Shown: in pieces, positions 17,512-61,183 of the stretch | Layout: each line of letters opens with the position of its first letter | Position numbering within the stretch: position 1 is the stretch's first letter | IMG/VR virus record: IMGVR_UViG_3300020049_006942 | Direction: 5' to 3' (one strand) | Source: a virus | Lineage: Duplodnaviria > Caudoviricetes | DNA: 64,000 bases | Translations under genes and position numbers: made by a program | The notes under the pieces: model-generated | Told to the model about the DNA's origin: nothing | The model's database searches: none | The model's input: the letters and a program-made list of their open reading frames with translations, nothing else

Positions 17512-17547
17512 GTAATTATTTATGGGGTAAATATATAAATACATATT

Positions 17548-26511: not shown

Positions 26512-26548
26512 AAATTGATTATCTAATAGGTTGATAATAGATATAGAC

Positions 26549-27226
26549 ATGCCTATCTGTAATGATAAGAAAATTATATTTGTTCACATTCCGAAGACGG
26601 GTGGTTCTTCTATAGAACAATCGCTCGGAATGAATTCAGAGAATAATATATATTCATTATCACCGATGAAGTATACCAATATTCCAGTGGATCGATCAAA
26701 ATTCATGTACACCAAAGGCGCATTAGAATCTATGTGGTATAGGACACCACAACATCTAACTATAACCCAACTGTTTAAGATTATTCCTGATGCATTTACT
26801 GATGAATATAAGATATTTTGTGTAGTTAGAAATCCGTTTGAACGATTGGTAAGTGAGTGGGCATATATTCAGAATCATCCAGTAACACTTCCAAAAGATT
26901 ATAAAAAAATGAATTTTGAAGAATTTGTATATAGTGTGTTTAAACTTCCCACATTTGCCAGATTGGTGTTATTCGACTCTCACTTAGAAACACAAAAATC
27001 ATTTATAACCAACGAGACAAACGATATTGATTTTGATATTAATATATTCAGATTTGAGAAAATAGATGAATGTTTTAAATGGCTAGGTGTTGAGCCTGTT
27101 CAGACTATGACAAGTCATCACAGTTTATATAAAGAATATTACACACCAGCATTGGAAAAGTTTGTAGCAGGTATATATAAAGAGGATTTCGATTATTTTG
27201 GTTACTCGCCTACTATAGAAAGATGA
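26549..27226 (+). CDS. Sulfotransferase (Sulfotransfer_2-like); start reassigned to ATG 26549
   Basis: FVHIPKTGGSSI (5'-PSB) and VRNPFERLVS (3'-PB) motifs; YKEDFDYFGY end. Confidence 0.85.
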   Translation: MPICNDKKIIFVHIPKTGGSSIEQSLGMNSENNIYSLSPMKYTNIPVDRSKFMYTKGALESMWYRTPQHLTITQLFKIIPDAFTDEYKIFCVVRNPFERLVSEWAYIQNHPVTLPKDYKKMNFEEFVYSVFKLPTFARLVLFDSHLETQKSFITNETNDIDFDINIFRFEKIDECFKWLGVEPVQTMTSHHSLYKEYYTPALEKFVAGIYKEDFDYFGYSPTIER

Positions 27227-30673: not shown

Positions 30674-30698
30674 TTGATGCACTGTTATAAATAATTCT

Positions 30699-35112: not shown

Positions 35113-35142
35113 ATTAATATAATAAAACGTATAAATACTATT

Positions 35143-35541
35143 ATGACAGAAAAATTTGATTTGTTTATTGAACAACTACTATCCAAATTTGACGAATTAC
35201 CGAATGATATGCCGTATGGATTCTGGATAAGTCCTCTCGGAAAAATGTATTCTGTTAGTTATATGCAACATAATAGGGTTGCAGTTAATATTATTACAAA
35301 ATTTGAATCATATTTAAATAATCTATATGAAAGTGATGATAATATTATTAAAAATAGGGGCGATTTCTTAATCAGTAAAGGGTATTTACGATTGAATACC
35401 GATAAATACGGTTGTTATATAGATTGTACATATTATCCTGATTCGTCGAATGTTACTAAGCGAAAAACCCCCACCAGAATAGCAGAACAAACGGCTAAAG
35501 ATATAGCTACTTTTTATAATATTCCTGTCAAATACATATAA
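35143..35541 (+). CDS. Putative internal head protein (MTEKFD tag)
   Basis: TATAAATA 5 nt upstream; YGFWISPLG..H..A..KGYLR motif. Confidence 0.7.
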   Translation: MTEKFDLFIEQLLSKFDELPNDMPYGFWISPLGKMYSVSYMQHNRVAVNIITKFESYLNNLYESDDNIIKNRGDFLISKGYLRLNTDKYGCYIDCTYYPDSSNVTKRKTPTRIAEQTAKDIATFYNIPVKYI

Positions 35542-35549
35542 ATACTACT

Positions 35550-35846
35550 ATGACGGAAAAATTTGATGATTTTATAAAAAAACTATTACAAGAATCGGGG
35601 AGAAAACCCCGCTGTACTGGCCCTACATTGCCACAATTATCAGATAATCCTAGATATGTCTTTAGTAGATGTGCTCCTAATCCATATACTTCGGGATATA
35701 AACGAATTTATTATATACGTCGCGGAGAGAAACTAACTCTTGCAAAATGTAAGAATGATCCTAGATACGGTACTTCTAAATACGAAGAATGTCGTATTGC
35801 TCGTAGAGCATATGCGAATAGAATGAAACGTAGAAAACGTGGATAA
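35550..35846 (+). CDS. Basic Cys/Arg-rich putative internal head protein (MTEKFD tag)
   Basis: MTEKFDDFIKKLLQE^S; four Cys; very basic C-terminus. Confidence 0.7.
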   Translation: MTEKFDDFIKKLLQESGRKPRCTGPTLPQLSDNPRYVFSRCAPNPYTSGYKRIYYIRRGEKLTLAKCKNDPRYGTSKYEECRIARRAYANRMKRRKRG

Positions 35847-35848
35847 TT

Positions 35849-36490
35849 TTATTCTGTGTCTATAACTGTTCCGTGATAACCTAAAATAGACCCATCTACG
35901 GATTTATGCGGATATATAGTACATTTCACTGTTCTCATATTGCTGGTTATCTGATGTTTGATTACAAATTCCGATTCAAATGGAATATTATACTGGATGC
36001 TCGACTTCCAGAGATTCCATACTTTATCTCGAAAATCTTCTTCGACACTTACTATCCAAGAGTTAGCAGAAAGACTTTCTATATCCAATCCTGTCATATT
36101 TATAAATGCTTTATTAGCCCATACTAGATTTCCCGATTTATCAAATTCTAACATCCCTGTTGTAACAAGAGTTGATGCAATAAGTTTTGTTCTCAACTCT
36201 GCTAGACGAGTATTATCATCGATTCGAAGAATTCGATCCATGATGGATTTGCCGCTGTTTTTGGAGAACTCTCTACTTAATGATTGTATGACAGGAAGTA
36301 TCTCAGTATTGATGACATCAACTGTTTCCGCCATTCTATTAACTTTAGTTAAGTGATCGCGAACAGGATCGGATATGAGGCGTTTAAATACTCTTTTTAC
36401 GAATAACTTCCATATCGCCACGACAAACCCGAAAACTGTAGCGGATGCAACAATAAATTCCAATACATCTTTTAAATTAGTAAAATCCAT
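35849..36490 (-). CDS. Single-TM + PAS-domain protein, holin candidate
   Basis: N-terminal TM helix, NSGKSIMDRILRI linker, PAS signature FDKSGNLVWANKAF..TG....W...V...R; TATAAATA 5 nt upstream. Confidence 0.7.
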   Translation of the reverse strand: MDFTNLKDVLEFIVASATVFGFVVAIWKLFVKRVFKRLISDPVRDHLTKVNRMAETVDVINTEILPVIQSLSREFSKNSGKSIMDRILRIDDNTRLAELRTKLIASTLVTTGMLEFDKSGNLVWANKAFINMTGLDIESLSANSWIVSVEEDFRDKVWNLWKSSIQYNIPFESEFVIKHQITSNMRTVKCTIYPHKSVDGSILGYHGTVIDTE

Positions 36491-36548
36491 ATCAATATTT
36501 ATAAAATTATAATTGTTCCCAGTTGTGTTTATTATAAAAACAATTCGT

Positions 36549-39319: not shown

Positions 39320-39354
39320 AATTATATTTATACAATATAATTGTAAATAATTAT

Positions 39355-39558
39355 ATGAAATACATTACCATACTTCTTGATTTGTTTAAAGGACTTGGTG
39401 TTCTGATTGACTTTTTTATTGCAAAGAAAAATAAAAGTGCCAGAATCAAGGAAGTTGCCCAGATCGAAGAACTTAAAAAAGAAACAATCGCAATTATCGA
39501 AAAGAAAGAGTTAAAATCAGATGATATCAATAAACTAAACGAAGGATTGAAATTTTAA
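39355..39558 (+). CDS. Small N-anchored coiled-coil protein, possible i-spanin
   Basis: Hydrophobic N-terminus then charged helix; own late promoter. Confidence 0.45.
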   Translation: MKYITILLDLFKGLGVLIDFFIAKKNKSARIKEVAQIEELKKETIAIIEKKELKSDDINKLNEGLKF

Positions 39559-43700: not shown

Positions 43701-43714
43701 CTATTTATAAATAG
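43701..43714. promoter_or_regulatory. Palindromic bidirectional late promoter
   Basis: CTATTTATAAATAG is a perfect palindrome giving TATAAATA on both strands, 7 nt from the gp15 ATG and 5 nt from the gp14 GTG. Confidence 0.75.
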
Positions 43715-46630: not shown

Positions 46631-46649
46631 TTTTATATAAATAACTAAT

Positions 46650-58556: not shown

Positions 58557-58565
58557 TTAATATAT

Positions 58566-60284
58566 TTATAAGAAATTCCACCCACCGTCGGCAACATGCA
58601 CTGGATAGTTACTATTAACTTTTACAGTACGATCATTTCCAAAATCAAATATGGCAGTATAAACATTGCCTCCGCCGATATCACGTATAGGTTTACTATC
58701 ACGTAATCCGTTTTTGAAATAACTGTCAGATAGGTATTGATTCGGGTCACTTATTTTGACTGGAGAACCTGCTTCATCATATTCTTCAACATCAAGATAG
58801 CGTTCGGCAATATCCTTTTTGAGAATAACCAGTGCCCACACTGTTGCCATAACCCTATCGTCATGATAACCTTTCTTTGCTGCCCATGTTTTATTTTCTT
58901 TTCGTGTAAATGATTCAAATTCTTGAACGGTGGGTAGATCATATATAGAAACTGTTTGTTTGGTTTCTACATAATATTTTAAGTTCTGAATACCACCATA
59001 TTTTGAATTTTGGTGACAGAAAATACCAGGGCTTTGATAAACACCGCGTTTATCATTTTGCATATTATAATTCACAATATTATCATAATTATGAACTTGT
59101 AGTAATGCATCAATAACTGTCCCGCCTTCCTTGTTTCGTTCAATACATAAAAACGGTCTTCCCCATGATCGTGCTGTTTGATTAAGCTTCTCTGCAAATA
59201 CCCAAGGTTGTATCTTATTAGATGCATAGGTTGCACAATGAAGAATATCTGTTGGATTGGTAATATCCATAACTTGTGCAACTGTGTAATCTTGTCCCAC
59301 ACCTTCTGAAATATCCACACCTATCGAGTAGATTCTCCCTGGTTCGGGATTTCTCCATATATAATAGGCACCATCATCAAATGAATATTCTGCCGGGGTA
59401 CACATCTCTTTTAGTTTATCAATAACCTGTTGGTTGATTGCTGCTGTTCCATTTTCTAAGAATTCAATCTCATATTCTTGCTTCCAAGTATCCATATCAT
59501 AGTTGATGGCTGCTAGATTGTCCTTAACCCATGCCTCACCACGGCCCGGTACATCTGAGTAATGGATTTTTATAGGACACCAGTTATTTTTCTTAGATTC
59601 TGCATCTTTCCATATTTCATAAAATTTTCCAACGGCTCCTTTAGGTGTTGAAACGAGAACTATCTTTGCTTCTGTAGAAGATGATACCGTAGGCATGACC
59701 GATTTGAAGAATCCTTCGACTATTTGTGTCTGAATGTGTGCAAACTCATCTACGAATAATAAATTAACAGATTTTCCACGAATACCGGACTCGGAAGTGG
59801 TTGAAATAAATATTTTTGAATTATTGGAAAATTTAACATTTTCATTGGTGAATACCGGGACACATGATTTTAACCAGTTAGGTAATTCTTCATAACCCAT
59901 TTTGATACGATCTAATAATTCTTTGGCCTGATCTTCTTTATTTGCTAAAATTGCTATTGTATAGTCTTCATTGAACAGTGCAGTCCATAAACATACTATA
60001 GTCATAAGGGTGGACTTGCCAATTTGACGGCTTGCACATATTATAGTTCTTTTGTTGTCTAATACTGCCTTGATTGCTCTTTTTTGTGCGGGATATAATT
60101 TTATCTTCTGTCTTGCAGGCTTCATATCCATCATAATGATGTGAAAGTAGTTTTCCGCGAAATAGATAATATCTTCCTCACATTTTTTCATCTCCATCAA
60201 TTGTTCAGCGGTATAGTCGTGAGTAATTTTAATCGGCAACGACTCATTATTATTCATGAACTTATCTGTATTCTTCTTTGCCAT
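58566..60284 (-). CDS. gp17: Terminase large subunit, T4 gp17-like
   Basis: KC..D..YFAENY, SRQIGKST, ILANK, RGKS..LLFVDEFAH, STPKG, QEYE..F, GVD.SEG.GQD, HDDRVMA. Confidence 0.96.
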   Translation of the reverse strand: MAKKNTDKFMNNNESLPIKITHDYTAEQLMEMKKCEEDIIYFAENYFHIIMMDMKPARQKIKLYPAQKRAIKAVLDNKRTIICASRQIGKSTLMTIVCLWTALFNEDYTIAILANKEDQAKELLDRIKMGYEELPNWLKSCVPVFTNENVKFSNNSKIFISTTSESGIRGKSVNLLFVDEFAHIQTQIVEGFFKSVMPTVSSSTEAKIVLVSTPKGAVGKFYEIWKDAESKKNNWCPIKIHYSDVPGRGEAWVKDNLAAINYDMDTWKQEYEIEFLENGTAAINQQVIDKLKEMCTPAEYSFDDGAYYIWRNPEPGRIYSIGVDISEGVGQDYTVAQVMDITNPTDILHCATYASNKIQPWVFAEKLNQTARSWGRPFLCIERNKEGGTVIDALLQVHNYDNIVNYNMQNDKRGVYQSPGIFCHQNSKYGGIQNLKYYVETKQTVSIYDLPTVQEFESFTRKENKTWAAKKGYHDDRVMATVWALVILKKDIAERYLDVEEYDEAGSPVKISDPNQYLSDSYFKNGLRDSKPIRDIGGGNVYTAIFDFGNDRTVKVNSNYPVHVADGGWNFL

Positions 60285-61160: not shown

Positions 61161-61183
61161 ATTTTGTATATAAATACCACTAT

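Follow-up and report, generated by a model that had tools for sequence, protein, structure and literature searches.

A T4-like phage protein with a PAS domain and a module homologous to small proteins of lysis cassettes: a candidate lysis-timing membrane protein

In a stretch of 64,000 nucleotides (nt) from the tailed-phage record IMGVR_UViG_3300020049_006942 of IMG/VR (hereafter the window), an open reading frame (ORF) of 213 amino acids (aa) was found to encode a single N-terminal transmembrane (TM) helix, a basic stretch, a long helix with a conserved signature and a C-terminal PAS domain. Its front half is homologous to PAS-less proteins of phrog_9869, a relationship which sequence comparison settles, and this half with the TM helix and the signature is a phage-only module which, alone, is a small protein (65-150 aa) of lysis cassettes. 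By analogy with regulators such as LysF1b and Ms6 Gp5, which contain one transmembrane domain (TMD) with the N-terminus outside and the C-terminus inside (N-out/C-in), the protein is tentatively read as a membrane protein of this kind that times lysis and has gained a sensor domain; somewhat less than an even chance is given to this reading. An earlier note, made from the letters of the window, had taken the protein for a PAS-gated holin, and that interpretation was found to be partly supported.

Architecture of the protein

The features of the gene and of its product were found to be as follows.

35849..36490, minus strand: ORF of 213 aa (from the ORF list) with a membrane anchor, a long helix carrying the family motif and a C-terminal PAS domain
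36496..36503, minus strand: T4-type late promoter element TATAAATA, 5 nt upstream of the ATG, matching the T4 late-promoter consensus, from which the promoter function is inferred
36398..36466, minus strand: TM helix, residues ~9-31, with a Kyte-Doolittle value of 2.17 over 19 residues
36380..36409, minus strand: basic juxtamembrane stretch, K28-R37 (K28, K32, R33, K36 and R37), with a net charge of +4 over residues 28-45
36215..36271, minus strand: family signature E-F-x-x-N-S-G-K-S-I-M-D-R-I-L-R-I-D-D, residues 74-92, with invariant columns, the most conserved part of the protein
35858..36160, minus strand: PAS domain, residues 111-211, without a downstream output domain, from Pfam, NCBIfam, AlphaFold2 and Foldseek

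The AlphaFold2 model, for which an alignment of 20 homologues was used, contained a single predicted helix at residues 6-110 followed by a predicted PAS fold at residues 112-211, with a mean predicted local distance difference test score (pLDDT) of 84 and values of 88-93 in the PAS part. The Pfam family PAS_3 (PF08447) was matched at 29.4 bits against a cut-off of 25.6 with model positions 3-89 of 89 covered, and the NCBIfam model TIGR00229 was matched at 23.3 against a cut-off of 22.9. The Foldseek search against the PDB yielded PAS domains only (NifL and LOV proteins) at a probability of 1.00, a TM-score by target of 0.7-0.83 and an identity of 15-21%. The protein ends 4 residues past the PAS_3 match, and hence no output domain is present. 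The Pfam scan of the protein with E-values up to 1 contained PAS families only and no match to Phage_holin_T (PF11031).

The TM helix, the basic stretch, the complete PAS domain without an output domain and the late promoter, all of which had been named in the earlier note, were thus borne out. The coiled coil of the same note was not, as the heptad periodicity of residues 37-78 was not significant; the observed score was reached by 20% of the shuffles and a coiled coil is therefore not demonstrated.

A flavin-binding (LOV) reading of the PAS domain was considered and rejected, because the GXNCRFLQ cysteine motif is absent, the equivalent place being occupied by SANSWIVSVEEDFRD, and the identity to the LOV matches was 15-18%. 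No flavin motif and no other known cofactor motif were found in the PAS domain. The residues C190 and H195 were found to be invariant in the T4-like clade only.

The PAS-fused family

The full-length homologues were found to number 61, with lengths of 197-219 aa and identities of 48-97%. An exhaustive search yielded 2148 relatives; most of the best of these were proteins of ~180-230 aa with the same build, and the remaining relatives were large bacterial multi-PAS kinases matching the PAS part only. The nearest clusters of ~185-230 aa in the ESM Atlas were 99-100% viral, and one of them contained 1142 members. As judged from these searches, the PAS-fused form of ~200 aa is a large family which has been seen in viruses only and numbers thousands, the more distant homologues being of ~190-230 aa. 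No match was found for the locus by megablast or for the PAS protein by tblastn in 50,697 phage records, and tblastn of other members of the family against the phage records was likewise without a match.

The highest conservation was found at residues 74-106 (EFSKNSGKSIMDRILRIDDNTRLAELRSKLIAS) and not in the PAS domain. This segment contains the motif NSGKSIMDRILRI at residues 78-90, in which N78, G80 and D85 were invariant across 23 divergent small homologues. The extended signature E[FL]xxN[SG]GxS[ILM]xDx[IV]xR[IL][DE] was contained in 156 of the 160 small homologues, whereas only one of the 48 large bacterial multi-PAS proteins was found to contain it.

The PAS-less module in lysis cassettes

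The motif scan of IMG/VR yielded 16 further PAS-fused loci together with 44 loci encoding PAS-less proteins of 64-171 aa, which contained the TM helix, the basic stretch and the motif. All of the ten small proteins that were scanned matched phrog_9869, a family of unknown function, and none matched a Pfam family. Residues 9-97 of the window protein gave a weak hidden Markov model (HMM) match to phrog_9869 (E 0.017), and the hhalign comparison of the N-terminal 100-105 residues of the T4-like clade with 20 small proteins gave a probability of 94.9% and an E-value of 4.5e-8 over 66 columns, including the TM helix and the signature. The NxGxSxxD motif, whose likeness to small phage membrane proteins the earlier note had pointed out, is also contained in the PAS-less phrog_9869 proteins.

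In cultured phages the module was found in the following arrangements with lysis genes.

Streptomyces phage mu1/6: endolysin gp50, holin gp51, module gp52
Streptomyces phage TurkishDelight: endolysin 35, holin 36, module 37
Arthrobacter phage Sonali: module 22, endolysin 23, holin 24
Thermobifida phage P1312: module 040, overlapping amidase 041

The holin of mu1/6 was reportedly described by Farkasovska et al. 2004. In Arthrobacter phage LiSara the endolysin was found 3.4 kb downstream of the module (gene 70). The annotations of the module were found to disagree: P1312_040 is labelled 'sensory protein kinase CreC', the modules of LiSara (gene 70) and Wheelbite are labelled 'membrane protein' in GenBank versus 'holin' in RefSeq, and elsewhere the label is 'hypothetical protein'.

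Among the 35 non-redundant metagenomic module loci, 14 were found to contain a putative endolysin of the LAS/M15 type and/or a two-TM holin-like protein within four genes. The first type of neighbour was a conserved protein of 141-174 aa with the motifs SxHxxGxAxD and HxH, and the second type was a two-TM holin-like protein of 62-96 aa. The 141-174 aa protein remained below the Pfam M15_4 cut-off (13-15 bits) and its fold was that of a LAS/M15 zinc peptidoglycan peptidase, with matches to VldE, MepA, LdcB and LysB4; judging by this fold, it may constitute an unrecognised endolysin subfamily of freshwater actinophage-like contigs. It was found at L040:5602-6105, L046:5133-5579, L058:4418-4930 and 10 further loci. 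The PDB sequence searches with the M15-like cluster and with a 253-aa protein of locus L025 were without a match. The Pfam tally of the module neighbours also contained GH25, SLT, SLT_3, NlpC/P60, VanY, Phage_r1t_holin and Phage_holin_9. The commonest recognisable neighbours were KTSC-domain proteins (PF13619), found in 7 of the 109 scanned (loci L036-L078), followed by WhiB with three.

From the cultured cassettes and the 14 of 35 metagenomic loci, the module is taken to be a component of lysis cassettes, usually accompanied by a separate small holin.

Membrane topology

The hydrophobic segment was found to begin at about residue 11 in 159 small homologues, with its character conserved but not its sequence. 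In these homologues the N-flank carried 0.6 K/R and 1.9 D/E residues, whereas the C-flank carried 3.5 K/R and 1.0 D/E residues. Under the positive-inside rule the acidic N-flank and the basic C-flank predict an N-out/C-in topology for the family, under which the helix would be cytoplasmic together with the PAS domain. A cleavable signal peptide at the N-terminus was rejected, the n-region being acidic and not basic.

Comparison with known lysis proteins

LysF1b of phages Girr and NormanBulbieJr is a protein of 124 aa with four basic residues after the TMD followed by an extended cytoplasmic helix; its deletion leads to severe lysis defects, and suppressors map to the two-TMD partner LysF1a (PMC13056207). 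Ms6 Gp5 interacts with the holin Gp4, the loss of Gp5 delays lysis, and Gp5 does not complement lambda S- (PMC6116114). The one-TMD regulator LysA2b of D29 is encoded downstream of the tape-measure gene, among tail genes and outside the lysis cassette (bioRxiv 10.64898/2026.08.27.747656), and single-TM N-out/C-in proteins of 79-145 aa are common in the lysis cassettes of Gordonia phages (PMC9671378).

The window protein was found to fit the LysF1b-type build, with one TMD at the N-terminus, a predicted N-out/C-in topology, basic residues that follow the TMD and an extended helix in the cytoplasm. The likeness to LysF1b, LysA2b and Ms6 Gp5 is one of build: one N-terminal TMD predicted as N-out/C-in, a basic cluster after it and a helical cytoplasmic part. 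The LysF1b-type proteins act with a separate two-TMD holin-like protein, as the window protein may do, and the LysA2b gene lies among tail genes as the window gene does. Unlike the window protein, the LysF1b-type proteins measure ~124 aa, end in a highly charged helical tail and lack a globular or PAS domain, and their hosts are mycolata whereas the window phage is T4-like. The phrog_9869 proteins (mu1/6 gp52, Sonali gp22, P1312_040 and TurkishDelight gp37) contain a homologous TM helix, basic stretch and signature, and are phage-only; those of the cultured phages are of 65-184 aa with a short terminal helix and without PAS, and their genes, unlike the window gene, lie directly beside an endolysin.

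As the one-TMD N-out/C-in regulators are the closest by build, the window protein is proposed to be a lysis-timing protein with a PAS input. In the studied phages a separate two-TMD holin is annotated beside the PAS-less module, and for this reason an accessory or regulatory role, as in LysF1b and Ms6 Gp5, fits better than that of a hole-former.

The T4 holin T, to which the earlier note had likened the protein, belongs to class IIIa with the antiholins RI and RIII, and is N-in with a periplasmic C-terminal domain (PMC11413866). The 'GAF-like' label given to that domain in the note was not confirmed by this source, in which only the periplasmic C-terminal domain is given. T and the window protein are alike in containing one TMD and a large soluble domain, in their length of ~215 aa and in being late genes of T4-type phages, and the soluble domain of T receives a lysis-delaying signal. 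The analogy was not upheld beyond this, as T is N-in/C-out with a periplasmic regulatory domain, the topology predicted for the window protein is the opposite, Phage_holin_T was not matched, and none of the tests made here marked the domain of T as a canonical PAS. The class IIIb holin gp142 of phiKZ contains a large cytoplasmic regulatory domain and has a cytoplasmic regulator, gp143 (PMC12894885). It is alike in its single TMD and in a large cytoplasmic regulatory domain which modulates the timing of lysis, whereas its cytoplasmic domain is N-terminal (N-in/C-out) and a helical bundle instead of a PAS, its sequence is unrelated, and its holin activity was shown experimentally while the window protein is known from sequence. 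A literature search for a PAS-bearing holin, lysis regulator or phage membrane protein yielded nothing relevant.

The protein could also be a holin proper, in which the single TM helix would oligomerise into lethal holes releasing the endolysin and the cytoplasmic PAS domain would gate or time this step, as the soluble domains of class III holins do. The one TMD, the late promoter and the length of 213 aa against 218 aa in T4 T agree with such a role, and phiKZ gp142 provides a precedent for a large cytoplasmic regulatory domain (PMC12894885). The TM scan of all window ORFs yielded no second convincing small membrane protein, so that the statement of the earlier note that no other holin candidate is evident in the window was sustained; the contig of which the window makes up 64 kb is at least 190 kb long. 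In the PAS-fused locus P0189 the gene was found to overlap an Amidase_2 gene, a classic holin-endolysin arrangement, and the module homologue of LiSara bears the RefSeq label 'holin'. Whole-architecture matches to T4-type holins of Proteus phages were found in BFVD, which were weak and not significant (probability 0.57-0.84, TM-score ~0.25). Against these points, a separate small holin is annotated beside the module in mu1/6, TurkishDelight and Sonali, and a separate two-TM holin-like cluster is present in the metagenomic loci. The predicted topology is opposite to that of class IIIa and of class IIIb (PMC11413866; PMC12894885), no match to Phage_holin_T was found, and one-TMD N-out/C-in proteins did not behave as stand-alone holins in experiments, as illustrated by the missing lambda S- complementation of Ms6 Gp5 (PMC6116114). 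A scan of 40 window ORFs detected no family of endolysins, holins or spanins, and none of these ORFs forms a recognisable lysis cassette with the window gene. The holin claim of the earlier note was therefore supported in that the protein is a small late one-TMD protein whose module occurs in lysis cassettes elsewhere. It was not supported as to a holin as such, a separate two-TMD holin being annotated beside the PAS-less module in the studied phages, and no lysin was found adjacent here; a hole-forming role is regarded as unlikely.

Genomic setting of the PAS-fused form

Several observations on the setting of the gene were found to weigh against a role in lysis timing. In the T4-like clade the gp6-like (583 aa) and gp7-like (1308 aa) baseplate genes precede the PAS gene, which converges on gp14-, gp13- and portal-like genes. 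In the window and in all 14 T4-like relatives its surroundings were baseplate (gp6/gp7-like), neck (gp13) and tail-fibre genes, and neither an endolysin nor a canonical holin was detected nearby. In 18 other PAS-fused viral loci the neighbours were mostly tail fibres and other structural genes, further contigs were alike, and most of the PAS-fused genes were located at the end of tail-fibre operons. A recognisable lysin was found within four genes in 3 of ~28 PAS-fused contexts outside the T4-like clade, a rate roughly as expected by chance in a phage of 60-80 genes. Endolysins in the neighbourhood of homologues, which the earlier note had named as a check, were therefore found beside the PAS-less module in the four cultured actinophages but for the PAS-fused form only at about this rate, and the lysis link of the fused form rests mainly on the homology of the module. 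For the module itself the link is drawn from gene position alone, the function of phrog_9869 being unknown. The tblastn search with mu1/6 gp52 yielded phages of Arthrobacter, Streptomyces, Thermobifida and Glutamicibacter only and no Mycobacterium phage. In L029, L030 and L033 the second gene downstream of the PAS gene encodes a 306-aa protein, which was considered as a cysteine-peptidase lysin and rejected, as it is a highly abundant conserved marine protein without a Pfam match.

The 306-aa protein was found at L029:5795-6715, L030:5735-6655 and L033:3776-4699; marine metagenomes, among them those of Tara, contain 1835 homologues that are 75-91% identical. It probably serves as major capsid protein in a marine phage group that is abundant and uncultured.

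Besides P0189, individual PAS-fused loci with lysis-type neighbours were also found. The PAS-fused gene is followed two genes downstream by a GH108 muramidase in L089 (PDB sequence match, E 1.5e-8) and 1.1 kb downstream on the same strand by a Peptidase_M15_3 protein in L019, and it is flanked by holin-like TM proteins or lipoproteins in L024, L091 and L032. When seven lysin Pfam families were searched against 17-22 PAS-fused viral records, Amidase_2 was matched once, 16 kb away, and Peptidase_M15_3 once (L019). The other five families were without a match in these records, a result which is uninformative for GH108 and GH19 as the control genomes were not matched either. Phage_holin_T and Phage_lysozyme were without a match in the records of the T4-like relatives, which are 19-29% complete, and this is uninformative either way. 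Lysis genes are dispersed in T4-type genomes; since this is so, and since D29 LysA2b lies away from its cassette, the missing adjacency is regarded as weak counter-evidence.

The same setting is in agreement with a membrane-tethered PAS protein that is not involved in lysis, for which a fairly substantial though lesser probability is retained. Such a protein would be a sensor or decoy pairing with host PAS kinases or with enzymes of cyclic di-GMP (c-di-GMP) for host takeover, a factor of superinfection exclusion which acts on the inner side of the membrane, or a factor of tail, baseplate or fibre assembly. It would account for the consistent position of the gene at the 3′ end of baseplate and tail-fibre operons, in the T4-like clade as in most PAS-fused relatives, and for the association of the PAS-fused members with lysins not being above chance. 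Outside viruses, the PAS domain has its nearest sequence relatives in bacterial multi-PAS kinases, and PAS domains commonly heterodimerise. On the other side, the only consistent genomic partners of the N-terminal module were lysins and holins; the periplasmic tail contains only ~8 residues, hence receptors or incoming DNA would not be blocked from outside; and we know of no assembly factor of such architecture.

A component of the virion, namely a neck or collar 'whisker' similar to T4 fibritin with an N-terminal attachment, a helical shaft and a globular PAS domain, is regarded as very improbable. The gene lies between baseplate and neck genes, where wac lies in T4, and in relatives it is found between the gp7-like and the gp13/gp14-like genes; the late promoter and the predicted long helix followed by a globular domain would also be in agreement. 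However, the N-terminal segment is conserved in hydrophobicity only and contains acidic and basic flanks, which is the signature of a membrane anchor and not of a specific protein interface, the homologous PAS-less module is found beside lysins in siphovirus- and podovirus-like contigs, and the heptad signal was not significant.

Promoter, neighbouring genes and the window

The window, with a GC content of ~35%, corresponds to the structural module of an uncultured myovirus that is T4-like and very divergent. The genes recognised in it were those of the portal gp20, gp13, gp15, gp25- and gp6-like baseplate wedge proteins, the prohead protease and the tail tube, and the portal was found to have at most ~29% identity to that of any cultured phage. 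The genes in the neighbourhood of the PAS gene were tail-fibre, neck and internal-protein-like genes, with a 752-aa fibre-like gene and a 172-aa F5/8-type-C gene upstream.

The octamer TATAAATA was found in 28 copies in the window versus 13.4 expected, and at a spacing of 5-7 nt it also precedes the portal, gp15-like, tail-tube-like and other structural genes. Sites 5-7 nt before start codons were found at 17534-17541, 30686-30693, 35130-35137, 35537-35544, 46636-46643 and 61169-61176, and on the minus strand at 36496-36503, 39325-39332, 43702-43709 and 58563-58570. If transcription starts as in T4 late promoters, this spacing would make the late mRNAs leaderless or nearly so, without room for a Shine-Dalgarno sequence.

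Two adjacent and otherwise unrelated ORFs on the plus strand, at 35143-35541 (132 aa) and 35550-35846 (98 aa), were found to have in common the promoter and the N-terminus MTEKFD.FI..LL, which recalls the capsid-targeting sequence of T4 internal proteins. The genes +1 to +3 in 11 related loci cluster together and occupy the same position as this pair. An ORF of 67 aa at 39355-39558 on the plus strand, opposite to the strand of its neighbours, was found to begin with an amphipathic or hydrophobic N-terminus and to end in a helical tail that is highly charged; the 71%-identical relative L006 keeps its length, start and end, whereas an overlapping two-TM ORF of 59 aa on the minus strand is not conserved. 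A galactose-3-O-sulfotransferase-like gene (phrog_3347, E 3e-20) was found at 26531-27226 on the plus strand, within the structural module between the baseplate and the fibre-like genes.

Proposed mechanism and significance

The architecture, the homology of the module, its association with lysins and holins in genomes and the predicted topology are established by the analysis, whereas a part in lysis for this very protein, its partner and its signal are inferred, and for the window the lysis link is indirect. For the lysis-timing reading the following scheme is proposed. The protein would be a late-expressed protein of the inner membrane with a short acidic periplasmic N-tail, and the remainder beyond the TM helix would be cytoplasmic, with the basic stretch followed by the ~75-residue signature helix and the PAS domain. 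In the membrane the module would cooperate with a small, separate protein of the holin type and thereby set the moment of permeabilisation. The PAS domain would make the permeabilisation depend on a cytoplasmic cue, which may be a ligand, the redox or energy state, or a partner protein, and it may act by changing the dimerisation or the availability of the signature helix.

In a wider sense, tailed phages of many lineages may carry a virus-only sensor-timer, in which a one-TMD lysis-control module has captured a cytoplasmic PAS domain and an intracellular signal (redox, energy, oxygen, a metabolite or a partner protein) shifts the permeabilisation; this extension is speculative and rather doubtful. 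If true, the sensor-timer would be the cytoplasmic counterpart of T4 lysis inhibition in a single polypeptide. One-TMD lysis-control proteins as such are known, and what is new is the added sensor domain and the homology of the module to phrog_9869. To our knowledge the known cases in which lysis is tuned to conditions are few, namely T4 RI/RIII, the phiKZ regulator and the mycobacteriophage one-TMD regulators, and none of them contains a classical sensor domain. The phrog_9869 module would gain a testable role, with mu1/6, Sonali, TurkishDelight and P1312 as tractable cultured carriers. The timing of lysis sets the fitness of a phage, and the presence of a PAS domain together with a lysis-cassette module in thousands of virus-only proteins would mean, if the reading is true, that a link between bursting and a cue inside the cell is common among phages.

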